From: an uncultured Candidatus Saccharibacteria bacterium
GTDB taxonomy: Bacteria > Patescibacteriota > Minisyncoccia > Phycocordibacterales > JAACPR01
DNA length: 64,000 nucleotides
Assembly (NCBI GenBank): GCA_964630375.1
Contig: CAZVRT010000004.1
Location: 8,651 to 72,650, forward strand
Direction of reading: 5' to 3'
In this document: positions 1,477 through 56,542 of the stretch, in pieces
Layout of the letters: each line of letters starts with the position of its first letter
How positions within the stretch are numbered: position 1 is the stretch's first letter
Notes under the pieces: model-generated
Seen by the model: only the letters and a program-made list of their open reading frames with translations
Databases searched by the model: none
Told to the model about the DNA's origin: nothing
Program-made: the position numbers and the translations under genes

Positions 1477-1983
1477 TCATTTCTCCAACTGTGGAACAGT
1501 TGTTGAGATGACTCGTCGACCCCATCTCTGAAAGACTCCAGAGACAGTATCGTTTTCAAGGTTTTCTAGCCGAAGATAATGATTCTTCGGGTAGACATGC
1601 CATTTTTCTCCGGATCCCGGAGGTTGGCTTACATTGATGTGAGGATGAATGGTCCCTTGGCTAATTCTGTCAGCCCCGTCAGCCCCGTAGACTCCGTGGA
1701 TGGAACCTTTGATGTAGGAGTTTTTGTTGAATTGTGTCCACTTAACTGTGTACACAAATCCGACTCCATTTCTCCGAGTGCTGAAGATTTTTGACTCGCC
1801 AGCTTTGAGTGTGAAAGGAGTTTCCTCCAACACCTCTACAGGTCCGTATTTCACGACAGGCTGGGTTTGTTTGATTCTTTCCTTTTCTTCGTTGAATGCT
1901 AAAGCGACGAAGATGGGGATCAAAACCACTGCAGCGATGCCAATGAAGCGCCCTCCTCTTTTTTTCTTCTTTTCTTCCTTCAT
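1477..1983 (-). CDS. Hypothetical secreted/membrane-anchored protein
   Basis: Lys-rich N-terminus followed by a TM helix (FIGIAAVVLIPIFVALAF). No recognisable domain. Confidence 0.5.
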   Translation of the reverse strand: MKEEKKKKRGGRFIGIAAVVLIPIFVALAFNEEKERIKQTQPVVKYGPVEVLEETPFTLKAGESKIFSTRRNGVGFVYTVKWTQFNKNSYIKGSIHGVYGADGADRISQGTIHPHINVSQPPGSGEKWHVYPKNHYLRLENLENDTVSGVFQRWGRRVISTTVPQLEK

Positions 1984-1999
1984 TAATTTTCAGGAGTGA

Positions 2000-3148
2000 T
2001 TATATGTTTCCGTCGGAGTCGACGACTGGTTTTGTGCCTTCAAGTCCGCGGTGAAGATTGACCTTCACATTTCCACCAGGGTTTGCTGTTCCGATGATCA
2101 ATTCCAAAGCCTTTTCGAAGGCTATGGTAGGCTCTTCGTTTTCTTTCGGTTTTGAGGCTTTAACAGCTTCTTGAGCCTGTTCAATCATCACATTGGTGAT
2201 GCCGCGAGCGTCAAGTGCGTTGTTGTAAGCTTGACTTGCGTTCAGGTTTGATACCTTGAACTCCTGAATGTGAATTCCATGACGAGTTTCCATATGATGG
2301 GCTTTGTTGTGGAATTCTTTGAATATATGACCGAAGGTTTTTGCAGGATCTGCAATTGCTTTCAAAAATGTAGTTTTTGAAGCAGCTGTTTCAACCATGT
2401 TCATCAAATAAGCACCCACGGTCTGTTCGACTTTTTTCTTGCGAAGTTCGTTGTTCGTGCCACCGGCTGCATAGGCATCAATGTCATTGATGTTGTAAGT
2501 CAAGATCATTTCTGCCGAACCTGTGACGTTTTGGAAGCTCAGTTGTTTGATTGGAATTTTCAAATTTTCCTGGCTTTCGGTATCGAACTCGCCTTGATTT
2601 TGGTCGAAGATGTTGATTATAGCCCAGATTGGACCGTGGTATTTAACAGTATTGTCCACCAGTCCTTGATCATCGGCAAGTTCGCGTTTCTTTGTGAAGA
2701 TTCGGTTGCTTGTACGGAAGACTGAGTTGGTGGTAGGGACGTAAAGTAGCTGTTGAGGCCACAAACGCCAAAACAGTATTGAACACAAAACCCAGATCGC
2801 ATCTATGTATTTGCTTTGAGGGAGTTTGCTTCCCATAAAAGTGATTAGGAATTCAAGACTGAACCCGATGAGCCACCCTAAAAAGGCAAAGAAGCTGATG
2901 TTGAACAATAAATTCCGAGAGTTTCGGATGTATTGTTCAGATGTGGTCATAGGTCTTGTGCTTGGTGTGTCCAAGACTTTGAAAACACTCATAAGGATTG
3001 CAATACCCAAAGGGGTAAGTACACCCATAATGAGATGAATGTCTCCGATATCTGCTTTCATTTCTTTCTTTATTTTTCGAGTTGAATTTTCGCGCATGGC
3101 CTTATGGCCTGTAAAAGAGCCACTTGGCTCAATACATTTTGAGCGCAA
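2000..3148 (-). CDS. Membrane protein, possibly SPFH/band-7-like (start codon uncertain; internal Met codons at residues 17 and 30)
   Basis: Two or three N-terminal TM helices, then a segment resembling SPFH (..GIHIQEFKVSNLNASQAYNNALDARGITNVMIEQAQEAVKA). The family assignment is weak. Confidence 0.4.
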   Translation of the reverse strand: MRSKCIEPSGSFTGHKAMRENSTRKIKKEMKADIGDIHLIMGVLTPLGIAILMSVFKVLDTPSTRPMTTSEQYIRNSRNLLFNISFFAFLGWLIGFSLEFLITFMGSKLPQSKYIDAIWVLCSILFWRLWPQQLLYVPTTNSVFRTSNRIFTKKRELADDQGLVDNTVKYHGPIWAIINIFDQNQGEFDTESQENLKIPIKQLSFQNVTGSAEMILTYNINDIDAYAAGGTNNELRKKKVEQTVGAYLMNMVETAASKTTFLKAIADPAKTFGHIFKEFHNKAHHMETRHGIHIQEFKVSNLNASQAYNNALDARGITNVMIEQAQEAVKASKPKENEEPTIAFEKALELIIGTANPGGNVKVNLHRGLEGTKPVVDSDGNI

Positions 3149-3257
3149 GTTTATCTAACTGCAATACTATCACATTTTTATGAAAAAGTCAAGTCAACAA
3201 TCAACAAAAAATGGCTTTGTTAAGCCATAAATTATCGTTTATTAAATACTTATTTTG

Positions 3258-3339
3258 TGCCGAGGAGAGGACTCGAACCTCCATGGGTCACCCCGCTTGC
3301 TCCTAAGGCAAGTGCGTCTACCAATTTCGCCACCTCGGC
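3258..3339 (-). tRNA. tRNA-Leu (anticodon TAG), long variable arm
   Basis: Reverse complement GCCGAGGTGGCGAAATTGGTAGACGCACTTGCCTTAGGAGCAAG...GGTTCGAGTCC...CCTCGGCA. Anticodon loop CTTAGGA. Confidence 0.85.
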
Positions 3340-3394
3340 ATACGGCAAATTCTATCAATAAAAAATAAAATTTACCAGCGAATTTCTCTCGCTT

Positions 3395-3467
3395 GTCCGC
3401 CTAGTAGGGCTCGAACCTACGACCGTTCGCTTAAGAGGCGACTGCTCTACCAGCTGAGCTATAGGCG
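3395..3467 (-). tRNA. tRNA-Lys (anticodon CTT)
   Basis: Reverse complement CCGCCTATAGCTCAGCTGGTAGAGCAGTCGCCTCTTAAGCGAACGGTCGTAGGTTCGAGCCCTACTAGGCGGA. Anticodon loop CTCTTAA. One G·A mismatch in the anticodon stem. Confidence 0.75.
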
Positions 3468-3522
3468 GAAGTTTTTAAATGCTAACAAAAAAATCTCTTA
3501 AAGGAAAGTAATTTTTTTGATG

Positions 3523-3604
3523 TGCCCGAAGCGGGACTCGAACCCACACATCTTGCGATACTCGATCTTAAGTCGAGGGCGTCTACCAATTCCGCCATTC
3601 GGGC
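3523..3604 (-). tRNA. tRNA-Leu (anticodon TAA), long variable arm
   Basis: Reverse complement GCCCGAATGGCGGAATTGGTAGACGCCCTCGACTTAAGATCGAG...GGTTCGAGTCCCGCTTCGGGCA. Confidence 0.85.
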
Positions 3605-3626
3605 AATTAGGTTTATGGAAACCTTG

Positions 3627-3698
3627 AGGCGTGGGCGGGAATCGAACCCGCGCATGGCGGTTTTGCAGACCGCAGCGTTACCACTTCGCCACCACGCC
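3627..3698 (-). tRNA. tRNA-Cys (anticodon GCA)
   Basis: Reverse complement GGCGTGGTGGCGAAGTGGTAACGCTGCGGTCTGCAAAACCGCCATGCGCGGGTTCGATTCCCGCCCACGCCT. Discriminator U. Confidence 0.85.
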
Positions 3699-10896: not shown

Positions 10897-10907
10897 TCTT
10901 TATTTTG

Positions 10908-10990
10908 TGCGCAGAGAGGGATTCGAACCCCCGTAGACCGAAGTCGGCGGATTTACAGTCCGCTGCAATTGACCGCTCTGCCATCTACGC
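10908..10990 (-). tRNA. tRNA-Tyr (anticodon GTA), long variable arm
   Basis: Reverse complement GCGTAGATGGCAGAGCGGTCAATTGCAGCGGACTGTAAATCCGCCGACTTCGGTCTACGGGGGTTCGAATCCCTCTCTGCGCA. Confidence 0.8.
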
Positions 10991-11079
10991 AGATACCCCA
11001 ACTCAATTTGAAAGAGGTTCATTTATCATAATTGTATTGATAATTTAAATCAAGTCCGACTTGTAGTATAATTTTTGTA

Positions 11080-11784
11080 ATGAAAAAAGAAGATAAAATC
11101 TTTTGGTTGCAGGCGGGCGGTATTTTTTTAGGTTCAGTTTTTATTTTTGCTGCTTTGGGATTATTGCCGACTAATTTGATTCCGGGGGAATTTATGATTG
11201 CTAAAAACAATCAGAAAGATCGAGTTGATTATTCAAAAGGTGCTTCAATTAGTGATCCTAATTTATTACAGGAAGTTACATATGTTAGAGATAGAAATGG
11301 CAACATTTTACGAAGTCCTGATAACTCAGAAACAGCTCAATCAACTGTTCAAACAACACTTTCAAAACCTTCTAGAATCGTAGTGCCATCAGTTGGAATT
11401 GATACCGTTGTTTTGCAGCCTCAAAGTCCGGCTGTTGATGTTTTGGACCAAGCTTTACAAAGTGGTGCTGTTTATTATCCGGGTTCTGGTTTTATAGAGC
11501 AGGGAAATATGTTTATTTTTGGACATAGTAGCCGTTTGCCTGTTGTTGTAAATCAAGCTTATAAAGCCTTCAATGACATTGAAAAGACTAAAATTGGTGA
11601 TGAAATCTATATCTATTCTGGTGGCCAAAAATATACGTATGTTGTGGAAAGAGTCTATCATGCAGACTCAGAATCAGCTTTTATTGACTTAAGTCGAAGT
11701 GGGCGAAGGCTGACTATTTCAACTTGTGATTCTTTTGGAAAAAAGACAGATCGATGGGTGGTGGATGCGGTGTTTAAGGGGTAA
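11080..11784 (+). CDS. Sortase family transpeptidase
   Basis: N-terminal TM anchor; catalytic His in IFGHSS; TLxTC-type motif RLTISTCDSF with the conserved Cys; Arg near the C-terminus. Confidence 0.75.
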   Translation: MKKEDKIFWLQAGGIFLGSVFIFAALGLLPTNLIPGEFMIAKNNQKDRVDYSKGASISDPNLLQEVTYVRDRNGNILRSPDNSETAQSTVQTTLSKPSRIVVPSVGIDTVVLQPQSPAVDVLDQALQSGAVYYPGSGFIEQGNMFIFGHSSRLPVVVNQAYKAFNDIEKTKIGDEIYIYSGGQKYTYVVERVYHADSESAFIDLSRSGRRLTISTCDSFGKKTDRWVVDAVFKG

Positions 11785-11899
11785 TTTCTGGATTTAAACT
11801 ATTTACAAGAGTGTATATATGTGAACTTGACTTTTTATAAAATTGTGCTAATATATACGCAGAAATAAGCTCACATTCGTTGAGTAAATTTCGTTCTTT

Positions 11900-11923
11900 C
11901 CAAACCAAACCAAACCCAAAAAC
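11900..11923. repeat. (CCAAA)3-CCCAAAAAC pentanucleotide microsatellite immediately upstream of the start codon of the GC-rich gene
   Basis: ccaaaccaaaccaaacccaaaaac at the left boundary of the compositional island. Confidence 0.8.
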
Positions 11924-11928
11924 AAAAA

Positions 11929-12789
11929 ATGAGTAACACCACCACTCCGGCCCCTGCGGCCACCACCGAAGAGCAAATCGCTCAACTCCGCGAATCCGTC
12001 AACCAGATCGCGGAAGCGGTCGCTACCCAGAACAAGTCGAAAGGCTTCTCTCTCAAGCTGAAATGGGGAGTCGCGGCGGGCCTCGTGCTCGCAGTGTTCC
12101 TCGCTCTGTGGGTCTTTCGCCCCACCAGCACTCCGACGGCAACCGCTCCTGTGGCTGCCACGCCTGAAAACGAAGAGCTCAAGGCTCTTCGGGTCGAGCT
12201 GGAAACAGCAAAGGTTGAACGTGAGGTGGCAGCGAAAGCTGCTGCTGAACAGGAAGAAGCCCAGAAGAAAGCCCAAGAGTCCGATGCTCTCCGAAAGGAG
12301 ATGTCGAGCATGAGGGAAGACTTCATGGCAGCCATCGCGGCTGCCTCGGCTTCTTCCAAGGCGACGGTATCCGCTGCTACTTCGAGTACTCCTGTCCAAT
12401 TGGAGGCTTCCACGAATAACGGCAGCAGCATTGCTGCCCAAATCAACGAAGGCCTCCGTCTTCAGTATGGGGTGGCCCATGCACACACCGGGGAAAGCAC
12501 CCCGCCTCCTGGCCTAACTTGGCTGGATCTTGGCGGGGTTCAGATTCCTATTTTCAGGAATCCTCGTATGAACAATCAGTGGGCCTTTGTTACCGGAGAT
12601 TTGCTCGATGGTGTCAAGACCCCTCCTCGTTCTAACGAAGTCCCTCTGCCCGAAGGGCGGACATGGATTCCTTTGACCGCGGCCAACATTCCGCCGACAG
12701 GGGCTATCAACCCTGATGGGCAAAATATGTCCATCGACCGGGCTTTGATGGACGGGGCACTCATTTACGGAACTGTTGCTGTAAGGTAG
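11929..12789 (+). CDS. Hypothetical membrane protein encoded on a high-GC (~58%) island; Thr/Pro/Ala-rich N-terminus, one TM, an Ala/Glu-rich coiled-coil and a C-terminal globular region
   Basis: Long ORF with an ATG start; an AT-rich promoter-like TTGACT-N16-TAATAT lies in the left flank; no Shine-Dalgarno sequence; composition is abruptly different from the flanks. Confidence 0.55.
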   Translation: MSNTTTPAPAATTEEQIAQLRESVNQIAEAVATQNKSKGFSLKLKWGVAAGLVLAVFLALWVFRPTSTPTATAPVAATPENEELKALRVELETAKVEREVAAKAAAEQEEAQKKAQESDALRKEMSSMREDFMAAIAAASASSKATVSAATSSTPVQLEASTNNGSSIAAQINEGLRLQYGVAHAHTGESTPPPGLTWLDLGGVQIPIFRNPRMNNQWAFVTGDLLDGVKTPPRSNEVPLPEGRTWIPLTAANIPPTGAINPDGQNMSIDRALMDGALIYGTVAVR

Positions 12790-12800
12790 CAGTTCTCACG

Positions 12801-12841
12801 AGCTTTTTGTTGGGTTCAATCCCCAGCAAAAAGCTTTTTTC
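12801..12841 (+). terminator. Hairpin terminator with a tRNA T-arm-like loop (minihelix-like) at the right edge of the GC island
   Basis: AGCTTTTTG-TTGGGTTCAATCCCCAG-CAAAAAGCT-TTTTT. The loop has a 'GGGTTCAATCCCC' core matching the tRNA T-stem/loop consensus. Confidence 0.6.
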
Positions 12842-12865
12842 TTTAAAAAGCAGTACCTATTGACT

Positions 12866-12894
12866 TAAATATAAAGATGTAGTATACTTGAAGG
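12866..12894 (+). promoter_or_regulatory. Sigma-70-like promoter for the repeat surface-protein gene
   Basis: TTGACT-17 nt-TATACT (approximate coordinates). Confidence 0.45.
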
Positions 12895-12919
12895 ATAGAT
12901 ATATAATTTAAGAAAAAAC

Positions 12920-14116
12920 ATGAAAAACATTTTATTAGAAACAAGAATAAAAAATATTTTGAAAAACATAACATTTGTTTTTGCCTTGATATTTTTCCCT
13001 GTAATGTCTGTACAAGCATATTCTTCATACACGCCTGATTATTCATCATCTCCAAGTTATTCATATTCTTCATATACCCCTAGCTACTCTTCTGGAAGTA
13101 ATTACAACTACTCTTCATATACTCCTAGTTATTCTAACTACGATTACAATTATTCTTCATACACACCAAGTTATAACTATGGATATAATGACTACAACTA
13201 CTCTTCATATACTCCTAGTTATTCTAACTACGATTACAATTGTTCAGATTGTTACAGCTACGGTGGATATTCTGACTACGGAAGTTACGGATACAACGAC
13301 TACTATGATTACACACCTTCATACGGAGGATGTTCAGGATCAAACTGTGGAGGTTCAACACCTTCATCAGGAGGAGCGTTGTCAGCACTGGGCTTTAACC
13401 TAAACTACAGCGACAATGACACAACTATTATCGACAACAGTAAAACAGATAATAGTGTAAGAATTAATATTCGAAACTCTTCAACTACAAATACAACTAA
13501 TAATCATTGTAGTAATAACACTGGTGACAATAACTGTAATAATACAACTACTATCATCACTTCAAATGACCAAGATAAAGACTATGATCTAGATGTTATC
13601 TGTCGAGTTTCAAAAACTAGAATTCGTGAAGGTGACACAGTAACATATGAAGTAGAAATCCGAGGTGGAAAACCTTCATATAGAATCGAATGGTCAGGTG
13701 ATATTTCAGGAGATGATGAAGAAGAGCGAGTACGTTATAACCGAAGAGGATCATACAGAGTTTCTGTAGAAGTTAGAGATTCAAAAGGTAATCGAGCTTC
13801 TGACGAATGTTCAATTGTTGTTGTTGATAGAGAAGACGAAGATGACGACGATGATGATAGACGAGTTACTGTAACAACAAATACAGGACTAGGAACACCA
13901 ACAGGAAATCTAGCATCTTTGGAATCAGTATTCTTGTCACAAGTCCCATATACAGGACCTGGAGATGTTGCGAAAGTTCTAGGAGTTGTTGCATTGATTG
14001 CAATTTGGAGTACGGCTATCGCTATGTATTTGAAAAAGCAACGAGCTGTAAAATCAGTATCAAATAAAATTGCAGACTTTAAAGAACAAAATAAAAACGC
14101 AAATAAAATTGCTTAA
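12920..14116 (+). CDS. Repeat-rich secreted surface protein: signal peptide, Tyr/Ser-rich (S)SYTPSY(S) repeats, Asn/Thr-rich region, poly-Asp/Glu tract, and a C-terminal 'VPYTG' motif followed by a TM helix and a basic tail (candidate sortase substrate)
   Basis: The repeats are visible in the translation. C-terminus ...SQVPYTGPGDVAKVLGVVALIAIWSTAIAMYLKKQR... A 47-bp perfect direct DNA repeat at 13105..13151 and 13195..13241. Confidence 0.6.
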   Translation: MKNILLETRIKNILKNITFVFALIFFPVMSVQAYSSYTPDYSSSPSYSYSSYTPSYSSGSNYNYSSYTPSYSNYDYNYSSYTPSYNYGYNDYNYSSYTPSYSNYDYNCSDCYSYGGYSDYGSYGYNDYYDYTPSYGGCSGSNCGGSTPSSGGALSALGFNLNYSDNDTTIIDNSKTDNSVRINIRNSSTTNTTNNHCSNNTGDNNCNNTTTIITSNDQDKDYDLDVICRVSKTRIREGDTVTYEVEIRGGKPSYRIEWSGDISGDDEEERVRYNRRGSYRVSVEVRDSKGNRASDECSIVVVDREDEDDDDDDRRVTVTTNTGLGTPTGNLASLESVFLSQVPYTGPGDVAKVLGVVALIAIWSTAIAMYLKKQRAVKSVSNKIADFKEQNKNANKIA

Positions 14117-14212
14117 CATTGGCGACCTTAGAGTTGACTTTTTGGGAAAGTTTATATAGGATATAGGTGTTTAGGGCATGCCCAGCGATCCGAGACTAGT
14201 CTCGGTGATTAT

Positions 14213-14620
14213 TTAGAAAAAACCAAGCACATGCTTGGTTTTTTCTTTTACGCTCGAAAATTCTTCTTGAGTAATTGTACCAATGTGCCTCTGCAGTCTT
14301 TTGGTGCTAAACATTCTAATTTGATGTAAAGATACGTATTGTATTTCACCGTTAATTTTAATTGGATGGAACCAACTTCCAACTCTTGGAGTTCTGGAGA
14401 TGGATAAACCAATAAAATGTTTATTAGATAATTTTTGTAAAATCAAAACTGGTCTACGAAAATAATCTCCTTTTCCACAAGATTCTTTTGCAATATTTAT
14501 GCCTATTGAACACCACCAAATCTCCGCAATTTTAAATAATAATTCTTTGTTCTTGTATATTTTTAATTCTAGTGTTTTCTTGATTAAATTCCAGTTGTCA
14601 AAATCTTTTTCCATCTCCAT
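14213..14620 (-). CDS. PemK/MazF-family toxin-like protein (Kid/CcdB fold) with an N-terminal extension; no cognate antitoxin gene recognised
   Basis: IWWCSIGINIAKESCGKGDYFRRPVLIL ... YVSLHQIRMFSTKRLQRHIGTITQEEF matches the MazF/PemK pattern Gxi..v.f.P..G.E..g.RPvlvl ... dqirtidk.Rl...iG.l..e. Confidence 0.55.
   Translation of the reverse strand: MEMEKDFDNWNLIKKTLELKIYKNKELLFKIAEIWWCSIGINIAKESCGKGDYFRRPVLILQKLSNKHFIGLSISRTPRVGSWFHPIKINGEIQYVSLHQIRMFSTKRLQRHIGTITQEEFSSVKEKTKHVLGFF
14217..14244. terminator. Bidirectional terminator hairpin (AAAAAA-CCAAGC-ACAT-GCTTGG-TTTTTT)
   Basis: Perfect 6-bp stem flanked by A and T runs. Nearby palindromes: CCGAGACTAGTCTCGG at 14190..14205 and GGGCATGCCC at 14174..14183. 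Confidence 0.6.
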
Positions 14621-22185: not shown

Positions 22186-23904
22186 ATGAATAAATACATC
22201 AAACTAACAGGTGTTGGCCTTATGCTGTACCTTGCAATCATTATCAAAGAAACACCCGTAGCATATGCAGCTATAATCACAGATTGTTCTACCGCCTTGG
22301 ATCAAGAAAATGAAACTTATGAGCTATCCGCCAACACATCAAACAACTGTGTAATTGCCGCCAACAACATTACCTTGGATGGGAAGGGGTTTGAATTGAA
22401 TGGATACATTCAGACTATGAGCAATTCTTTTGAAGTTAAAAATATAACAATTAATTCATCTTACTATTCTGTGTATGCGACTGGCATAGGAGCTGATGCT
22501 ATATTTACAGATGTGAATATGTCCGGGTACACTTATGGGATATTTGGAGATATTTCTATTTCAGGTTCAACAATCAACGGAAATTTACATGAAAATAGAT
22601 CCTTAATCTCTCAGGGTGGCATTAATATTGTTGATTCGGTTGTTAAATTGTTTAAAGTATCAGGTGATGGTGTGAATATTACAAACTCTACAGTGGGTAA
22701 TGGGTATGAAGAAAGTCCATCATATGGTTATACTTACAATTCAAGTGTTTTGGCAAATGAAATATCAATTAATGATTCCACCATTAATGCATATATTCGA
22801 AATGATTACTATACTAATGGTACATGGCTTGCTGATACTATATTAATCACCAATTCTGCTGTAGTTGGAGGTTTAAGGGCTAAAATAACAGAGATTAACG
22901 ACTCTTCGGTCTCGGGATATATTAGTATTAGGAGTGGTGATTACTATAGTAGCGACGGTAGTTTAAAAATAATTGGTTCTACTATTACAGGATTAAAAGT
23001 TGGGGGATTGATAGAATCCGTAAATACTCCTTTAATAATAACAAACTCTACTGTTTCTTTTGTTGGAGGGTATGGTATATGGGCTACAAACAATAATAAT
23101 ATTTATTTAACTGATTCATTAGTTTCAGCTAAAATTAGTAATGACATAGATAATGTCCACATCCTCAACACCCCACCCTCCCTAACAGTAACCCCTCTAT
23201 CCCTAGAAATAGACGAAGATGAAGTATTCAATCCACAAACAGGTACAGTAACAGCCTTTGATCAAATAGGACCAGATCTTGTAGATGTATCAGACAATAT
23301 ACAAGTAACAGGTACTGTAGAGGTAACACCAGGGGAATATGAACTGATATACAGCATAGAAGATCAACCGCTAATATATACAGTTAAAGGAGAAGAGGTA
23401 ATTGTAGGTCCTAACACTTCAACAACCACCAGAACCATCACAAGACTATCTGGAGGTAGTAATAACAACGAAGAACCCCAACCTTCTGAAGAACCATCTC
23501 GTCGTTCTAGCTCAAGAAGACAAGTACCACAATCTCTATCTTCTAACACCCAACTAACACAAATAATCACACAATACGCACAATTCCTTAAAACCCTACT
23601 ATCCATAGGCATAGAACTACCAAAACAGGTAACAGATATACTAAACACAATACCTAACACCACAACACCTAATACAACCACTACAACATTCACTAGAGAC
23701 TTAACACTAGGATCTACAGGTGAAGATGTATCTACCTTACAACAACTACTAATCTCTAAAGGTTACTCTATACCACAAGGTGCTACAGGATACTTTGGTA
23801 CACAAACACAACAGGCAGTGGCACAGTATCAGAGGGATAATGGGATAGAGCCTGCGGAGGGGTGGTTTGGACCTGTTACAAGAGATGTGGTGAATAGTTT
23901 TTAG
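22186..23904 (+). CDS. Large secreted protein: signal peptide, Asn/Ser/Thr-rich parallel-beta-helix-like repeats, Ser/Arg linker, C-terminal peptidoglycan-binding (PG_binding_1-like) domain
   Basis: N-terminal signal peptide; repeated (I/V)TNSTV-type motifs; C-terminus TGEDVSTLQQLLISKGYSIPQGATGYFGTQTQQAVAQYQRDNGIEPAEGWFGPVT. Confidence 0.6.
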   Translation: MNKYIKLTGVGLMLYLAIIIKETPVAYAAIITDCSTALDQENETYELSANTSNNCVIAANNITLDGKGFELNGYIQTMSNSFEVKNITINSSYYSVYATGIGADAIFTDVNMSGYTYGIFGDISISGSTINGNLHENRSLISQGGINIVDSVVKLFKVSGDGVNITNSTVGNGYEESPSYGYTYNSSVLANEISINDSTINAYIRNDYYTNGTWLADTILITNSAVVGGLRAKITEINDSSVSGYISIRSGDYYSSDGSLKIIGSTITGLKVGGLIESVNTPLIITNSTVSFVGGYGIWATNNNNIYLTDSLVSAKISNDIDNVHILNTPPSLTVTPLSLEIDEDEVFNPQTGTVTAFDQIGPDLVDVSDNIQVTGTVEVTPGEYELIYSIEDQPLIYTVKGEEVIVGPNTSTTTRTITRLSGGSNNNEEPQPSEEPSRRSSSRRQVPQSLSSNTQLTQIITQYAQFLKTLLSIGIELPKQVTDILNTIPNTTTPNTTTTTFTRDLTLGSTGEDVSTLQQLLISKGYSIPQGATGYFGTQTQQAVAQYQRDNGIEPAEGWFGPVTRDVVNSF

Positions 23905-43389: not shown

Positions 43390-45207
43390 ATGAAAAACAA
43401 AATCAAAAATAAAATCACCGCACTTATACTTTTACTTACCTTAACAATCCTTTCTTACTCACCTTTAATAATCAAACCTCAAACTGCAGAAGCAGCTGGG
43501 ACTTGGGTGTGGGAGGAGTTGACTGGGGCTGGACAAAGAAACTGGATGGGCATTACCTCATCAGATGATGGAATGAATCTGGCCGCTATTACTCAAAACG
43601 GATATATCTACACTTCGACAGATGGTGGTGATAATTGGGTTGAAAGGACTGGTGCTGGTTCAAGAGAGTGGATGGATATTGCTTCATCGGCTGATGGTTC
43701 TAAATTATTTGCTGTTCCACAATATGAACTGGTTATATGGATTTCAACTAACTTTGGTTTAACGTGGGACTCTGTGCTGCTTGATAATAATCCAGAGATA
43801 GAGTCTTTGGATCTTCAGTCTATCGCAGTTTCTGCTAATGGAGAAAAAATTGTAGTTATAAGTTCTGAGACTTATGGCGGAGGTTCGTATATTTCAAATA
43901 ACGCAGGTGAATCTTGGTCGGAAATAGAGGATTTTGATTACGATTATTTAGAACTTACTCCTTCAGTTTCTATGTCGTCAGACGGAATGAAAATAATAGC
44001 TGCTGCGCATCCTGATGGAGACTCTTCTAGTCATAGAGGGTATTTTATAACAACTAATGGTGGGGAGAGTTGGAATTATTCTGTGTCAAATGATCCGTAT
44101 CCGCACTATATACGAGCAAAATATTCAAAAGATGGTAATACGATATTGATGGCGGGACCAGAGGTTGGTTATGTTAGGGTGTCCGACAATAACGGAATCT
44201 CATGGAGAGATGTTGAAGGAGAAGTGTTTTGTGTGGAGGATGAGTGGGAGAATGAGACTTGTTATAATGATATAATTGGAGCTGATATTGCTTTATCATC
44301 AAATGCTCAAATACAAGTATTACTTTTGAACGAAGTCGGTCTTAGAGATGTACTAAATCCAGAACTGGATTTTTTAATTTCAACAGATGGAGGTCTGACT
44401 TTTTCAGCACATGAGACTGGATATCATTATCCTTATAATTCCAACATGTCTCAAAACATGATAACAATCTCTGCCCCCGGCACCACCATATACGCTGCAG
44501 AACCCTCAGGTCACATCTGGAAAGGAACATACATCCCCGAAACCTTCACCCTCTCCTTCAACACCCAAGGAGCATCTCCCATACCAGACATAACAGAAGA
44601 TGAAGGAACCTCTGTAACACTCCCACCCTCACCAACATACGAAGGATACACCTTCTTAAACTGGAACACACAAGCAGATGGTGAAGGAGACTCATACCAA
44701 CCAGGTGACTCATTCACACTAAACTCTGATACAACACTGTATGCTATATGGGAGGAAAACCCTATTGAAGAACAACCAGAAGAACAAACCCCCTCAGAAG
44801 AACCCTCACGTCGTTCTTCTTCACGTCGCTCAGTCCCTTCTAGCCTCCAAGCTAAAAACAACACCCTAAACTCTATTGTACTCCAATACAAAGACTCCCT
44901 AACAACACTACACACTCTAGGTATCATATCTCTCCCACAAAACATACTAGATATACTAAACATACAACCAACCAATACAACAAATACAACCTTCCTAAGA
45001 GACCTAACCCTAGGTGACACAGGTACAGATGTATCTACCTTGCAATCTATCCTAATATCTAAAGGATACTCTATACCAGCAGGACCAACAGGATACTTTG
45101 GTGAACAGACAAGACAAGCGGTGGCACAGTTCCAGAGAGACAACAACATTACACCTGCAGAGGGGTGGTTTGGGGTGGTGACTAGGGGGAAGATGAGGGG
45201 GTTTTAA
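43390..45207 (+). CDS. Secreted BNR-repeat (sialidase/Ycf48-like beta-propeller) protein with a Listeria-Bacteroides 'Flg_new' repeat domain and a C-terminal peptidoglycan-binding domain
   Basis: Signal peptide; BNR motifs STDGGDNW, TNGGESW, SDNNGISW, STDGGLTF; EGYTFLNWNTQADGEGDSYQPGDSFTLNSDTTLYAIWE; C-terminus TGTDVSTLQSILISKGYSIPAGPTGYFGEQTRQAVAQFQRDN. Confidence 0.6.
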   Translation: MKNKIKNKITALILLLTLTILSYSPLIIKPQTAEAAGTWVWEELTGAGQRNWMGITSSDDGMNLAAITQNGYIYTSTDGGDNWVERTGAGSREWMDIASSADGSKLFAVPQYELVIWISTNFGLTWDSVLLDNNPEIESLDLQSIAVSANGEKIVVISSETYGGGSYISNNAGESWSEIEDFDYDYLELTPSVSMSSDGMKIIAAAHPDGDSSSHRGYFITTNGGESWNYSVSNDPYPHYIRAKYSKDGNTILMAGPEVGYVRVSDNNGISWRDVEGEVFCVEDEWENETCYNDIIGADIALSSNAQIQVLLLNEVGLRDVLNPELDFLISTDGGLTFSAHETGYHYPYNSNMSQNMITISAPGTTIYAAEPSGHIWKGTYIPETFTLSFNTQGASPIPDITEDEGTSVTLPPSPTYEGYTFLNWNTQADGEGDSYQPGDSFTLNSDTTLYAIWEENPIEEQPEEQTPSEEPSRRSSSRRSVPSSLQAKNNTLNSIVLQYKDSLTTLHTLGIISLPQNILDILNIQPTNTTNTTFLRDLTLGDTGTDVSTLQSILISKGYSIPAGPTGYFGEQTRQAVAQFQRDNNITPAEGWFGVVTRGKMRGF

Positions 45208-45239: not shown

Positions 45240-46916
45240 ATGGTTAAAAGATTAATCTCATTATTTTCCAAAGAAATTTCAAACATTCACCAGGCAGCAT
45301 ATCTTATTGCTGCTTTTGCATTAATTTCCCAATTTTTAGGACTAATTCGAGATCGTCTATTAGCAGGAAAATTTGGTACAGGTATTGAACTTGATATTTA
45401 CTATTCTGCTTTTCGAATTCCAGATTTTATTTTCACAATGATAATTTCTCTGGTTTCTGCCGCTGTTCTTGTACCGTTTATTATCAAAGCGCTTGAGAAA
45501 GACGAAAATTATTTAAAGAAATTTTCAGATAGCATTTTCACAGGATTATTTTTTGTTTCTTTTATAATCGGAATAATAACTTTTTCTTTTGCGCCAAAAA
45601 TTTTAATAACAATTTTTCCAGAATATTTTAACTTGGGTTATGGAGAAACTTTAATTTTACTTACAAGAATTCTTTTATTCCAAACAATACTACTTTCTTT
45701 TTCTGGATTTTACATGAGTTACGTTCAAGTTTTTCAAAAGTTTTTGATTTATGCTTTGAGTCCGGTTTTGTACAACTTTGGAATTATTGTCGGAATTGTT
45801 TTCTTCTATGACAAAATTGGTGTTGCAGGGTTGGCTTGGGGAGTTGTTTTGGGAGCATTGCTTCATCTTATTGTTACGTTGCCGACAGTTTTTGCAAAAG
45901 GAATTATTCCAAAATTTGTTTGGAAACCAGATTGGAAAATTATCAAAGAAGTACTTTTACTTTCTTTACCAAGAACTGTTGCTTTGGCAGGAAATCAAAT
46001 CTCAATGTTGATTATGGTTACTTTAGCTGCTTTGATGAGCGCTGGTTCAGTTGCAATTTTCACATTTGCTTTTAACTTACAATCAATACCTCTTGCAATT
46101 ATTGGAGCGAGTTATTCGATGGCTGCTTTTCCAACATTGGCGAAACTTTTTGCAAAAGGAGAAACAAAAATTTTTACAGAATATGTTGTGAAAGCCGCGA
46201 GACACATTATTTTTTGGTCGATTCCGATTACGGTCTTGTTTATCGTTTTGCGGGCACAAGTTGTCAGAACTATTTTGGGAACAGGAAAATTTAGTTGGGA
46301 TGATACGAGACTTGTTGCAGCTTCTTTAGCATTGTTTGTTATCTCTGCGGTTGCTCAAAGTTTGATTCTGCTTTTCGTTCGAGGTTATTACTCAACAGGA
46401 GAAACTGTTAAGCCGTTGTTTTTCTCTTTAATTTCAATTGCGTTTACTGTCGCTTCAGTTTTTGGTTTGTTTTTCCTTTATGAAATTTCGCCGCAGTTTG
46501 TTATTTTTCTAGAAAATATGATGCGCGTTTCTAGTGGTCCAGGAAGTATGGTTTTGATTTTGCCAATTGCGTTTTCTTTGGGGCAAATATTAAATTTGAT
46601 TATGCTCTGGTCTTCTTTTGATAGAAAATTCTGTTGCTTCTCTGATATTTTGTGGCGATCAATTTTTCATACAACAGCCAGTTCGATTGTAATGGGATTT
46701 GTTACATATTATATGCTGAGAGTTTTCGATGATATTTTCAACATGTCGACAACTGCTGGAGTTTTTGCTCAAGGATTTTTCTCTGGAATTTTCGGAATCC
46801 TAGTTGGAATCTTGGTGCTGATAATTTTGGATAACCAAGAAATTAAAACAGTAGGAAAAACTCTTCATTCTCGATTCTGGAAAGCAAAAGTTGTGGTAGT
46901 GGAAGAAGAGGTTTAA
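45240..46916 (+). CDS. murJ: Lipid II flippase MurJ (MviN)
   Basis: ~14 TM segments; LIRDRLLAGKFGTGIELDIYYSAFRIPDF MurJ N-terminal signature. Confidence 0.85.
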   Translation: MVKRLISLFSKEISNIHQAAYLIAAFALISQFLGLIRDRLLAGKFGTGIELDIYYSAFRIPDFIFTMIISLVSAAVLVPFIIKALEKDENYLKKFSDSIFTGLFFVSFIIGIITFSFAPKILITIFPEYFNLGYGETLILLTRILLFQTILLSFSGFYMSYVQVFQKFLIYALSPVLYNFGIIVGIVFFYDKIGVAGLAWGVVLGALLHLIVTLPTVFAKGIIPKFVWKPDWKIIKEVLLLSLPRTVALAGNQISMLIMVTLAALMSAGSVAIFTFAFNLQSIPLAIIGASYSMAAFPTLAKLFAKGETKIFTEYVVKAARHIIFWSIPITVLFIVLRAQVVRTILGTGKFSWDDTRLVAASLALFVISAVAQSLILLFVRGYYSTGETVKPLFFSLISIAFTVASVFGLFFLYEISPQFVIFLENMMRVSSGPGSMVLILPIAFSLGQILNLIMLWSSFDRKFCCFSDILWRSIFHTTASSIVMGFVTYYMLRVFDDIFNMSTTAGVFAQGFFSGIFGILVGILVLIILDNQEIKTVGKTLHSRFWKAKVVVVEEEV

Positions 46917-55148: not shown

Positions 55149-55613
55149 TCAGTGCGGTGGAGTCCCGAGCCTTTTCAGTCCGAGTGAATTGAGCCAGTTG
55201 TCGATGTGTTGCAGGATTTTGTTTCCGGTATTTCGAGTTCTTCGCCAACTTGAATCAACGTCGTTTGCATCTCCGTAGTACACCACATCTCTGACTTTTG
55301 GTCTCGTGTTGTAAGCTCCAAGGCAATGCTTCACAGAGTTTAATACACGGGTGATTGTTCCTTTTTCTGAGCCCATCTCTTCCAGATATCCTTGAAGCAT
55401 GCGATATGCATCACCATCCATAATTTTGGATTCCAAAACTTCTGGATCAGCCTCGCCAAATTTGTACGGTTCTTGAGAGACGAAAACTTCTCTCTTGGGT
55501 CTGAATGAAATTGAAACGCAGATTTCTTGCTTACGGGGAATCAAGTCGTGTTTCGAGCAGTAATGTTCTACCATTTCTTCAATGGCTCGCAGATGTTTTT
55601 GGTCTATATTCAT
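55149..55613 (-). CDS. Hypothetical protein in a locally GC-elevated patch
   Basis: Long ORF with a likely start at the internal Met (MNIDQKHLRAI). No recognisable domain. Confidence 0.4.
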   Translation of the reverse strand: MNIDQKHLRAIEEMVEHYCSKHDLIPRKQEICVSISFRPKREVFVSQEPYKFGEADPEVLESKIMDGDAYRMLQGYLEEMGSEKGTITRVLNSVKHCLGAYNTRPKVRDVVYYGDANDVDSSWRRTRNTGNKILQHIDNWLNSLGLKRLGTPPH

Positions 55614-55732
55614 AGTAAAGATTTCTTCAATACAATAAAACAAAAAATAAAAATGTCAAATAAAATTTGCTAGAATATTTTCTAAATCATGATAAGGTTC
55701 ATTTGAAAACAAGAACCCAAAAACATTAAATA

Positions 55733-56542
55733 ATGAAACCAAGACCCTATATCGGAATTACAGATTTCCCTACGTGGGAAACAACTCAAAGAATGATTGA
55801 TTGTTTCAAGAAAAATCAATCTGGAATACCTCACGCTTTGCACATCGGAATAATGTGCAGCTACAAAAGCTTGAATGGGCATGCAACTAAATACGACGAT
55901 GTTTGGCCTGAGTCAAAATATCTTTCAAACATTTTTCCAGTAACTGGTAGCGAGCCCGTGTTCAATTGTCTGCATTATGCCGACTATGGAACCACGCCGT
56001 ACAAAGAAACTGTAAAAACGATTGTAAAAGGATTGAATGCCTGCGGCGCTCAGTTGCACGGTCTTCAGCTGGACATGATCTGGCCCGACTTTGCAGCTAT
56101 TTGGTCAGCCTTGAGGTTGAGTTTTAACAATTCTCCGTTAAAAGTGATTCTGCAAATCAATTCTCGGGCTTTCGAAATGATGGACAACGATCCTAAAAAA
56201 GTCGTTGAAAAACTTCGCGAGTATCGAGATCTGGGACTTCTCAACTATGTTTTGCTGGATAAAAGCATGGGTAAAGGACAGCCTTTGGACGCACGGTTCA
56301 TGTTGCCATTTCTTCGGGAAATTCAGGAGCAGTTTCCGGATGTTGGGTTGGTTGTTGCTGGAGGACTTGGTCCTGATACTCTGGATTTGCTTTGTCCAAT
56401 TTTGGAGGAGTTTCCGGGTATAAGTATTGATGCGCAGGGAAGACTTCGCCCGAGCTTTGATTCCACGAAACCGATTGATTGGAATATGGCGGAAAGGTAT
56501 GTGAAAAATGCAACTGATCTTTTCCGAAAATATATTCGCTGA
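55733..56542 (+). CDS. TIM-barrel protein resembling phosphoribosylanthranilate isomerase (TrpF-like), divergent
   Basis: ..NACGAQLHGLQLD.. (compare LDAVQLHGDE) and ..LVVAGGLGPDTL...GISIDAQG.. (compare ILAGGLNPENV...GVDVSSGVE). Confidence 0.4.
   Translation: MKPRPYIGITDFPTWETTQRMIDCFKKNQSGIPHALHIGIMCSYKSLNGHATKYDDVWPESKYLSNIFPVTGSEPVFNCLHYADYGTTPYKETVKTIVKGLNACGAQLHGLQLDMIWPDFAAIWSALRLSFNNSPLKVILQINSRAFEMMDNDPKKVVEKLREYRDLGLLNYVLLDKSMGKGQPLDARFMLPFLREIQEQFPDVGLVVAGGLGPDTLDLLCPILEEFPGISIDAQGRLRPSFDSTKPIDWNMAERYVKNATDLFRKYIR

Follow-up and report, generated by a model that had tools for sequence, protein, structure and literature searches.

The locus described here lies in a 64-kb stretch of contig CAZVRT010000004.1 (hereafter the window, meaning the whole stretch of DNA that we analysed) and consists of three open reading frames (ORFs): a sortase gene, a GC-rich gene of highly unusual composition, which we call the middle gene, and the gene of a surface protein that is likely to be the target of the sortase. 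All three ORFs (11080-11784, 11929-12789 and 12920-14116) were found where a preliminary description of this DNA had placed them. The window has a GC content of 35.8%, and its gene content includes ClpB, FolD, threonyl-tRNA synthetase (ThrRS), DnaE, RpoC, sigma-70 and MurJ. Its closest relatives are metagenome-assembled Paceibacterota/Parcubacteria, members of the candidate phyla radiation (CPR/Patescibacteria). From the source genome we examined the window, and from each related locus (L numbers below) about 14 kb, in which ORFs were called mechanically. The features of the cassette are:

10907..10990, minus strand: tRNA-Tyr (GTA), conserved left neighbour of the cassette (ARAGORN; Rfam, 57 bits)
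11044..11072, plus strand: predicted promoter-like site of the sortase gene, TTTAAA-17-TATAAT (consensus scan, 10 of 12 matches)
11080..11784, plus strand: sortase, 234 aa (PF04203), with a membrane anchor at about aa 7-29 and an extracytoplasmic catalytic domain at aa 100-231
11827..11854, plus strand: middle-gene promoter, TTGACT-16-TAATAT with extended TG (consensus scan; conserved across loci)
11929..12789, plus strand: GC-rich hypervariable middle gene, 286 aa (GC 0.573; GC at third codon positions, GC3, 0.60)
12800..12836, plus strand: intrinsic terminator of the middle gene, a 15-bp stem and then a T run (terminator scan; inverted repeat I4)
12860..12888, plus strand: promoter-like site of the target gene, TTGACT-17-TATACT (consensus scan)
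12920..14116, plus strand: likely sortase target, 398 aa (translation; PKD homology in relatives)
13925..14113, plus strand: C-terminal sorting module of the target (profile search; motif-anchored columns)

The arrangement is not an assembly chimera, a possibility that we rejected because the same order is found in independent NCBI, JGI and Logan assemblies. Each of the three genes has its own promoter-like site and a strong terminator follows the middle gene, so that sortase, middle gene and target look like separate transcription units and not like one operon. Hairpins equivalent to this terminator follow the middle gene in L041, L006, L005 and L001, and the TATTGACTT block at the promoter-like site of the target is kept in four of five loci. 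The sortase mRNA may be leaderless, since its ATG lies only 8 nt after the predicted -10 element (11072-11080). The middle gene has no evident Shine-Dalgarno sequence, and an A-rich run precedes its ATG.

A sortase and its likely target

The product of 11080..11784 had been recognised as a sortase from its motifs, and this identification holds. A search with PF04203, which the preliminary description had proposed along with a class assignment, gives 70 bits (E=2.1e-19; cutoff 26.6 bits) over profile positions 1-123 of 125. The catalytic residues are His149 in IFGHSS (nt 11524-11526), Cys216 in TISTCDS (nt 11725-11727) and Arg225 in DRWVV (nt 11752-11754). All three are invariant in four orthologues and align to the GH, TLITC and KRYVV segments of B. 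anthracis SrtA (2kw8), which is also the best among the PDB sortases that match the protein, at E values from 1.9e-6 to 8e-3. The class assignment, in turn, ended with all the NCBIfam class models that gave a match below their cutoffs: class_E scores 25.5 bits against 160, class_C 24.5 against 160, class_D 23.3 against 165 and SrtD 25 against 140. Even the generic sortase_fam model, with 26.5 bits, misses its cutoff of 39.35, and neither class A nor class B models are among the NCBIfam matches at E<=1. Among the models tested, the sortase is thus left without a class. A single-sequence AlphaFold2 (AF2) model of the protein has a mean predicted local distance difference test score (pLDDT) of 43.8, too low for use.

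The target protein begins with a signal peptide at aa 1-32, judged by inspection only, which reads MKNILLETRIKNILKNITFVFALIFFPVMSVQA and would be cut after VQA and ahead of YS. A Tyr/Ser-rich region of low complexity follows at aa 34-140, 32% of it Tyr (the whole protein of 398 aa holds 42 Tyr), then a PKD-like immunoglobulin (Ig) domain at about aa 225-300, an acidic linker and the sorting module. The PKD match is weak in the window target (Pfam E=0.008) and clear in its homologues. The C-terminus is made up of SVFLSQ (aa 336-341), VPYTG (aa 342-346, nt 13943-13957), PGDVAK, VLGVVALIAIWSTAIAMYL and KKQRAVKSVSNKIADFKEQNKNANKIA; a membrane helix of 19 residues spans aa 353-371 (nt 13976-14032), and the protein ends in a basic, conserved tail, KKQR...SNKIADFKEQN (aa 372-398). 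The tripartite ending reported earlier for 12920..14116, with VPYTG, a hydrophobic helix and a basic tail, is thus confirmed, and its layout is common to 111 cluster representatives that we place in class 1. The target is the only ORF of the window to bear such a tail.

To describe the sorting module we built a profile from the 78 C-terminal residues and ran it on 1.84 billion cluster representatives (P numbers below). It matches 207 clusters at E<=1e-3 and 85 at E<=1e-10, nearly all of them at the extreme C-terminus; we quote about 205 clusters, because two of the 150 listed matches (P0073 and P0142) do not have the motif. The pentapeptide is VPYTG in 111, IPYTG in 24 and LPYTG in 6, then come the helix and K/R. 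Columns were anchored on [LIVMFAT]PxTG among 147 matches, every one of which has a helix and K/R after the motif. The P, T and G of this pattern are at 100% because the anchoring fixes them, and are thus not independent evidence. The other columns are V(-5) at 0.95, [YF](-4) at 0.93, L(-3) at 1.00, Q(-1) at 0.80 and Y(+2) at 0.95. In the cytoplasmic tail, F-[KR]-x-x-N is found in 106 of 111. Among 100 module representatives, the passenger domain is PKD_4 in 72 and PKD in 63. Judging from these sequences, the module belongs in essence to a single superfamily of surface proteins, whose tail it forms.

Class 1 is joined by a second class (36 of the 147), in which VYLS[DQ]VPYTG and the helix precede an extension and the PKD domains lie outside. 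Many of these proteins share a segment of the '..IEDYAR..' type, which no Pfam family matches. The class includes P0085, P0087, P0091, P0103-P0107, P0110, P0113, P0115, P0118, P0124 and P0125. If a sortase cleaves such proteins, a membrane-anchored cytoplasmic domain would stay behind.

Gene order also supports the pairing of module and enzyme. Homologues of the C-terminal half of the target show the same order in every contig that is long enough: ClpB, (tRNA-Tyr), sortase, a gene without Pfam matches, target. Sortase and VPYTG protein occur together in the window and in L001, L003, L004 and L041. When one genome per GTDB species was scanned with the sortase alone as query, 36 loci were found, all in Paceibacterota/Parcubacteria. 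Throughout the main sortase clade, a target lies within 5 kb downstream in every locus with enough sequence (about 20 genomes), and these neighbouring targets end in S-[VI]-[FY]-L-[SN]-Q-[VI]-P-Y-T-G, a helix and a basic tail. In L023, L025, L026, L031 and L035 the target even comes directly after the sortase, across gaps of 9-185 bp.

The earlier proposal that the target is the cognate substrate of the sortase is thus supported on three sides, by the hidden Markov model (HMM) evidence, by a neighbourhood conserved in about 20 genomes and by the recurrence of the module in about 205 clusters, and we consider the pairing likely on these sequence grounds. It looks like a dedicated pair and not like a general many-to-one sorting signal, because the module is nearly confined to PKD proteins (72 of 100 carriers across databases) and the genes are adjacent; in the 64-kb window, there is one tail-bearing protein and not a set of them.

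In the mechanism that we envision, the target would be exported by means of its signal peptide, presumably through Sec, after which its C-terminal helix and basic tail would keep it in the membrane. A candidate substrate peptide for the sortase is SVFLSQVPYTGPGD. The sortase would then cut SVFLSQ-VPYTG between Thr345 and Gly346, forming a thioester with Cys216, and the target would be passed to an amine acceptor, most likely lipid II/peptidoglycan, as expected from the sortase family. An acceptor of this kind is likely to be present in the organism, because the window encodes the lipid II flippase MurJ and two proteins with PG_binding_1 domains:

22186-23904, plus strand: secreted protein with a C-terminal PG_binding_1 domain
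43390-45207, plus strand: secreted protein with a C-terminal PG_binding_1 domain
45240-46916, plus strand: MurJ

One of the two PG_binding_1 proteins also has BNR/sortilin and Listeria-Bacteroides repeats. Their presence suggests that proteins are attached to the wall by non-covalent peptidoglycan binding as well.

Several observations weigh against a signal that is cut by this sortase. The NCBIfam scan of the target gave no families at E<=1, and so no match to the LPXTG-anchor model (TIGR01167). The cytoplasmic tail of about 27 aa is conserved, and 36 of the 147 related proteins run 60-370 residues beyond the helix, both of them unusual traits in a leaving group destined to be discarded. The module is almost restricted to the PKD superfamily and could be a family-specific juxtamembrane motif. 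Last, a separate clade of sortases has no target nearby: no VPYTG protein is encoded within the available sequence of L028, L032, L033, L034, L036, L037 and L038. In this clade the sortase is always followed by a gene of 194 aa whose product we take, from our own reading, to be a nucleoside-diphosphate kinase (NDK), hence our label NDK-linked.

Put together, such points outline another explanation, in which the VPYTG module would be a juxtamembrane motif with a permanent anchor and a functional tail in a family of PKD type I membrane proteins, and the sortase would act elsewhere. The F-[KR]-x-x-N tail (106 of 111), the 36 relatives with long cytoplasmic extensions after the helix and the near confinement to PKD proteins all fit it; what keeps it alive is the LPXTG-anchor HMM miss together with a conserved tail and extensions that are unusual for a discarded segment. 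Against it stand the conservation of columns that are independent of the anchoring pattern (Tyr +2 at 0.95, Leu -3 at 1.00), with helix and K/R after the motif, and an adjacency of sortase and target that persists down to about 35-40% sortase identity, including the five loci in which the two are 9-185 bp apart. A conserved tail is moreover compatible with recognition or retention of the target before cleavage. We regard a permanent anchor as rather improbable and retain the dedicated sortase-PKD pair.

A GC-rich, hypervariable gene in a conserved slot

Between enzyme and target, the preliminary description had noticed an island of high GC content of about 0.9 kb. This island is real and equals a single ORF, the middle gene (11929-12789). 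Between 11900 and 12800, GC content runs at 0.55-0.60, while the window as a whole averages 0.358 (sd 0.043). No other stretch of the window is as GC-rich, and the gene is its strongest compositional outlier, at z=4.8 with respect to the 41 other window ORFs; GC3 of the flanking genes is 0.22-0.24. The GC step follows the coding sequence (CDS): mean GC is 0.35-0.40 upstream and 0.46-0.56 inside, and after the stop codon it is 0.48 in the first 50 nt, which hold the terminator stem, then 0.27 and 0.17. There is no GC skew, G and C being about equally frequent at third positions of the middle gene (skew -0.19 to +0.06). Relative synonymous codon usage (RSCU) correlates negatively with that of the gene's own flanks (r=-0.27) and positively with that of pooled, non-homologous middle genes of other genomes (r=+0.63); it also resembles genes of GC-rich Paceibacteria (r=0.47-0.65). 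In the flanks, CTC, CCC and CGG are unused among 128 Leu, 52 Pro and 87 Arg codons; GTC, ACC and GGC, too, are hardly used elsewhere. An Rfam search gave no structured RNA match within the island. Translational selection for C-ending codons, as in genes of high expression, was considered and rejected: other genes of the window, IF-2, LepA and RNA polymerase among them, have a GC3 of only 0.20-0.26, and a single outlier would be left unexplained.

The middle protein has a cytoplasmic N-terminus, one membrane helix at aa 44-62 (nt 12058-12114; hydropathy), a helical, coiled-coil stalk at aa 80-149 (AF2 model) and a beta-rich head at aa 190-286 (nt 12496-12786; AF2 pLDDT 76-87). It matches no family in Pfam, NCBIfam or PHROGs, and searches of Pfam and PHROGs with the middle proteins of seven or eight other loci gave only low-complexity, coiled-coil or collagen matches. 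That the gene is nevertheless a genuine coding sequence is clear from a frame-wise test against L041, a homologous allele with the same synteny: in the annotated frame, the proportions of non-synonymous (pN) and synonymous (pS) differences in the head are 0.19 and 0.89, and stops interrupt each of the other five. Read in its annotated frame, the head shows purifying selection, and antisense or alternative-frame coding is rejected by the same test.

The gene recurs at this position in other genomes with the same peculiarity of composition. In 15 of 16 three-gene loci its GC3 is above that of every other ORF of >=150 aa, with a mean excess of +0.28, and the highest-GC 600-bp stretch of nearly every locus of about 14 kb falls inside it. 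The middle genes of L001, L003 and L004, for example, have a GC of 0.545-0.625 and a GC3 of 0.59-0.62 against 0.19-0.35 in their neighbours. Every middle protein carries a single hydrophobic helix close to its N-terminus and, behind it, a stalk that leads to a C-terminal portion of about 100 aa. Stalks differ in type: the window has a coiled coil, L001 a Pro/Ala-rich segment and L009 a collagen G-X-Y repeat. As sequences, these proteins are almost unalignable, with 4 BLAST pairs among 20 proteins and hhalign probabilities of <=12.5% between head groups.

How sharply this variability is confined is best seen in L003 and L027, in which the sortase, the 3' part of the target and the downstream genes are about 88% identical at the DNA level. 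Identity drops after the sortase stop codon, to about 70% over the first 120 nt or so of the middle gene and then to random level, where it stays up to the end of the middle gene and throughout the Tyr-rich 5' region of the target gene, before it returns to about 90% at the part that encodes the PKD domain and the signal. The stretch concerned is:

L003 1008-2340 against L027 7457-8845: hypervariable stretch, covering the middle gene and the Tyr/Ser-rich 5' part of the target gene

Comparison of the window with L041 suggests that the slot has lasted for long. Synonymous divergence (dS) is 1.1-1.8, that is, saturated, in ClpB, sortase and target, and pS in the middle gene is 0.77 overall and 0.89 in the head, with a pN/pS of about 0.2 in the head (all these values are Nei-Gojobori proportions at saturation). 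The two middle genes have kept a GC3 of 0.60 and 0.58 in genomes whose GC3 is about 0.2. The promoter is kept as well, a TTGACT...TGCTAnnAT block being present in the window, L041, L006, L005 and L001 despite unrelated coding sequences behind it. Across loci, middle-gene GC follows background GC with a mean offset of +0.15 (r=0.56, n=14, uncorrected for phylogeny).

The family to which the window allele belongs is small, with about 5-6 known members among 5.8 billion proteins and JGI metagenomes, all in the same slot wherever their context is available. A search with the head domain added one member, P0009, and a metagenome scan gave two loci, one of them already known; these database searches rest on a word index and pattern scans, which could miss distant relatives. 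The window allele is related to the allele of L001, whose sortase is 50% identical, and not to those of L005 and L006, whose sortases are 71-72% identical. Because allele homology is incongruent with sortase similarity in this way, exchange or replacement of alleles within the slot is suggested.

A rough neighbour-joining distance tree of the sortases places all loci with a middle gene in one large clade, and in the basal clades sortase and target are adjacent. Since the basal clades have this simpler layout, an ancestral sortase-target pair gained the interposed gene, though long ago. The sortases of L029, L030, L035 and L039 come from GC-rich Paceibacteria (63-67% GC). In three of these GC-rich relatives, L029, L030 and L035, the middle gene is absent, and in L030 and L035 the target stands straight after the sortase. 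Elsewhere the slot holds two genes:

L005 7800-8837: two genes in the slot
L008 7773-8516: two genes in the slot
L011 7518-8240: two genes in the slot
L020 745-1875: two genes in the slot

Those of L020 are tandem paralogues (43% identity over 74 aa) that are not GC-rich, and L020 is the sole locus without the compositional anomaly.

The left neighbour of the cassette is conserved too. The tRNA-Tyr gene lies just upstream of the sortase in nine of nine middle-gene-containing loci tested and is absent in the basal L023 and L031. Copies of tRNA-Tyr(GTA) are found at:

L001 5013-5098
L041 4974-5057
L005 6796-6881

and also in L007, L008, L010, L012, L017 and L027. The tRNA-Tyr thus adjoins a cassette whose target is very Tyr-rich at its N-terminus, which may be a coincidence, the mark of an old integration site or a link of supply.

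We propose that the slot is a long-lived, separately transcribed and hypervariable one, which would encode a single-pass stalk protein with its N-terminus inside and a variable head of about 100 aa. From its architecture, the middle protein is most plausibly exposed at the surface and serves in recognition or adhesion, its head being replaced repeatedly or diverging fast. The GC-rich codon usage would then be tied to the coding sequence itself and would persist over the long term in spite of the AT pressure of the genome.

How the middle gene came to be, and to stay, GC-rich

The island had been described as a foreign-looking insertion into a sortase-substrate operon. In a deep evolutionary sense this stands, because in basal loci sortase and target are adjacent; it does not stand as a recent or genome-specific event, with 15 of 16 loci filled, nor do the genes look like one operon. 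Although the composition is atypical, what goes with a recent island is missing: no direct repeats flank the middle gene (only trivial repeats were found), the cassette has no integrase, and no relatives of the gene were found outside the slot among 5.8 billion proteins or JGI metagenome contigs. A phage origin was rejected after four viral-contig scans and tblastn against GenBank phages were all negative. Given saturated dS, a GC step bound to the coding sequence, a conserved promoter, the lack of repeats and mobile relatives, and a codon usage shared among middle genes, we conclude that the gene is not a recent insertion.

Horizontal acquisition has nevertheless to be weighed in two forms, as a single recent insertion or as recurrent import from a GC-rich pool, be it a host bacterium, a phage or a relative. 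The codon usage that is unlike the host genome (r=-0.27) and like genes of GC-rich Paceibacteria (r=0.47-0.65), the gene's own promoter and terminator, its absence from basal clades, an allele phylogeny incongruent with the sortase and a tRNA gene next to the cassette all argue for it. Two findings exclude the single recent insertion: 15 of 16 loci have the slot filled, and dS is saturated where homologous alleles are compared. Recurrent import fares better, because a high GC3 at saturated dS is also what repeated supply by an unsampled GC-rich reservoir would produce. Yet no homologue was found outside the slot in the proteins, JGI contigs, viral contigs and GenBank phages searched, and the GC-rich relatives that were sampled (L029, L030, L035) do not have the gene. 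The GC step moreover ends at the boundaries of the coding sequence behind a native, conserved promoter, flanking repeats are lacking, and middle-gene GC tracks that of the host at the offset of +0.15 (r=0.56). Horizontal acquisition is thus unlikely as an account of the GC-rich gene.

Recombination offers another route to the same composition: GC-richness may be a by-product or a requirement of frequent exchange, through GC-biased gene conversion (gBGC) or in the manner of the Borrelia vls system, with the sortase and target genes as recombination arms. Here, an excess in GC3 of +0.28 is far larger than the gBGC effects reported for bacteria. The excess also stops at the boundaries of the coding sequence and does not fade into the flanks, there is no vls-like GC skew, and no silent copy or repeat is present in the 64-kb window. 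In fact, blastn finds no second copy of any part of the middle gene there, and for want of such a repeat the idea of a diversity-generating retroelement or of silent cassettes was dropped; no reverse transcriptase is seen among the listed window ORFs, most of which were unscanned against the family library. Hypervariability that is confined between conserved flanks and the incongruent allele phylogeny speak for recombination all the same. So does precedent: the variable vls cassettes of Borrelia have 49.1% GC in a genome of 28.6%, from which strong selective pressure was inferred (PMC11499132), and a recombination-associated elevation of GC3, or gBGC, has been proposed for bacteria (PMC4450053). 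On balance we doubt that recombination is the cause, and give it about the same small weight as import.

The middle protein could also be a partner in the sortase reaction, either a membrane-anchored acceptor like that of pilus-type sortases or a factor for substrate presentation. Its strictly conserved position between enzyme and target would be explained in this way, as would the fact that it is extracytoplasmic and membrane-anchored like the sortase. Five loci, however, do without it, its heads show no relationship from one genome to the next, in contrast to the conserved sortase and target, and no Lys-containing, pilin-like motif is evidently conserved. Such a role seems very unlikely.

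Taken as a whole, the best explanation of the locus is a dedicated sortase-PKD pair with a long-lived, hypervariable, GC-rich slot between its two genes, and we hold this combination to be probable, with real room for doubt. Beside the points raised above against the sorting signal, two more weigh against it: incongruent allele homology points to exchange and not to pure vertical descent, and the fold of the head has no match in the PDB, the proposed role as an adhesin being read from architecture. The force that keeps the gene GC-rich may be recurrent import, recombination-linked GC enrichment or selection on the coding sequence or its mRNA (such as control by rare codons). More speculatively, and with low odds in our estimation, the cassette would be a variable surface locus of a type undescribed in CPR bacteria, a slot with a fixed promoter, set between a sortase and its target, in which membrane-anchored stalk-and-head proteins would be swapped or rewritten at a high rate, and in which GC-rich codons would be actively maintained and functionally required and not a trace of foreign origin. 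Possible reasons for such a requirement are that these codons drive or result from recombination, as proposed for Borrelia vls, or that rare codons tune expression.

Surrounding genes and known systems

Other parts of the window deserve brief mention. A gene for a PemK/MazF-like toxin (14213-14620, minus strand; Pfam E=1.2e-8) lies between the target gene and folD, with a hairpin (14190-14205) just downstream of its 3' end (stop codon at 14213). The toxin gene and folD appear to be window-specific additions, because related loci go from the target to ThrRS or DnaE. Two further ORFs, 1477-1983 and 2000-3148 (both on the minus strand), have a GC3 of 0.49 and 0.46 against about 0.25 and encode a 168-aa protein with an N-terminal membrane helix and an SPFH/Band 7 protein. 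This pair (1477-3148), which adjoins a cluster of four tRNAs at 3257-3698, may be a second, milder compositional island. A divergent pair at 55149-55643 (minus strand) and 55733-56542 (plus strand) is mildly atypical, with a GC3 of 0.42 and no Pfam match.

The enzyme and its likely target resemble the classical LPXTG system of class A-F sortases in the Pfam sortase domain, the His-Cys-Arg triad and the N-terminal anchor of the enzyme, and in a target with a signal peptide and a tripartite C-terminus ([VIL]-P-Y-T-G, helix, basic residues). They differ from it in that no class model is reached and the best PDB match is only E=1.9e-6, in a signal with a six-residue upstream extension, S-V-[YF]-L-[SN]-Q, and Tyr at X, and in a conserved tail of about 27 aa with F-K-x-x-N; the LPXTG-anchor HMM gives no match. 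The concept of dedicated sorting enzymes and targets is that of Haft and Varghese 2011 (PMC3237569). The locus is like known dedicated pairs, such as the Gram-negative 'marine' sortase TIGR03784 and its single, adjacent LPXTG target, in having one enzyme beside one target family with conserved adjacency. Unlike there, the target is a PKD-domain protein and not a vWA/vault-like one, the lineage (Paceibacteria) and the motif are different, those NCBIfam models give no match, and a third, variable gene is interposed. The likeness between the middle gene and Borrelia vls is that of a variable surface-protein gene with a G+C content far above that of an AT-rich genome. The two have no homology, and the strong coding-strand GC skew and the silent cassette array of vls are both absent from the sequence examined here.

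More than half of CPR genomes have a sortase of family fam000526 (Meheust et al. 2019, PMC6744442), to which the window sortase plausibly belongs. In the literature we found no description of a VPYTG signal, a dedicated PKD target or a GC-rich interposed gene, and for LPXTG together with Parcubacteria only a paper on a sortase predictor. Thus, even though sortases are known to be common in CPR/Patescibacteria, their targets and signals were not found defined, and the locus offers a concrete pair of enzyme and signal, SVYLSQ-[VI]PYTG...FKxxN. What is new in this enzyme-target part is the extended signal, the conserved tail and the lack of a class among the models tested. The locus also offers a family of surface proteins, with PKD domains and a Tyr-rich N-terminus, in organisms whose surface biology and host attachment are poorly known.

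The unusual element is the persistent, GC-rich and hypervariable gene. It is a natural case of a coding sequence whose GC3 stays at about 0.6 in genomes that themselves have only about 0.2, in many lineages and beyond synonymous saturation, and that keeps its GC3 while the head domain it encodes turns over. Explaining its composition bears on how base composition is maintained, whether by selection, biased conversion or gene flow, and its pattern bears on how ultra-small episymbionts vary their surface. If the cassette is indeed an undescribed variable surface locus, the head of the middle protein would be what determines the recognition of host cells or phages in these episymbionts.

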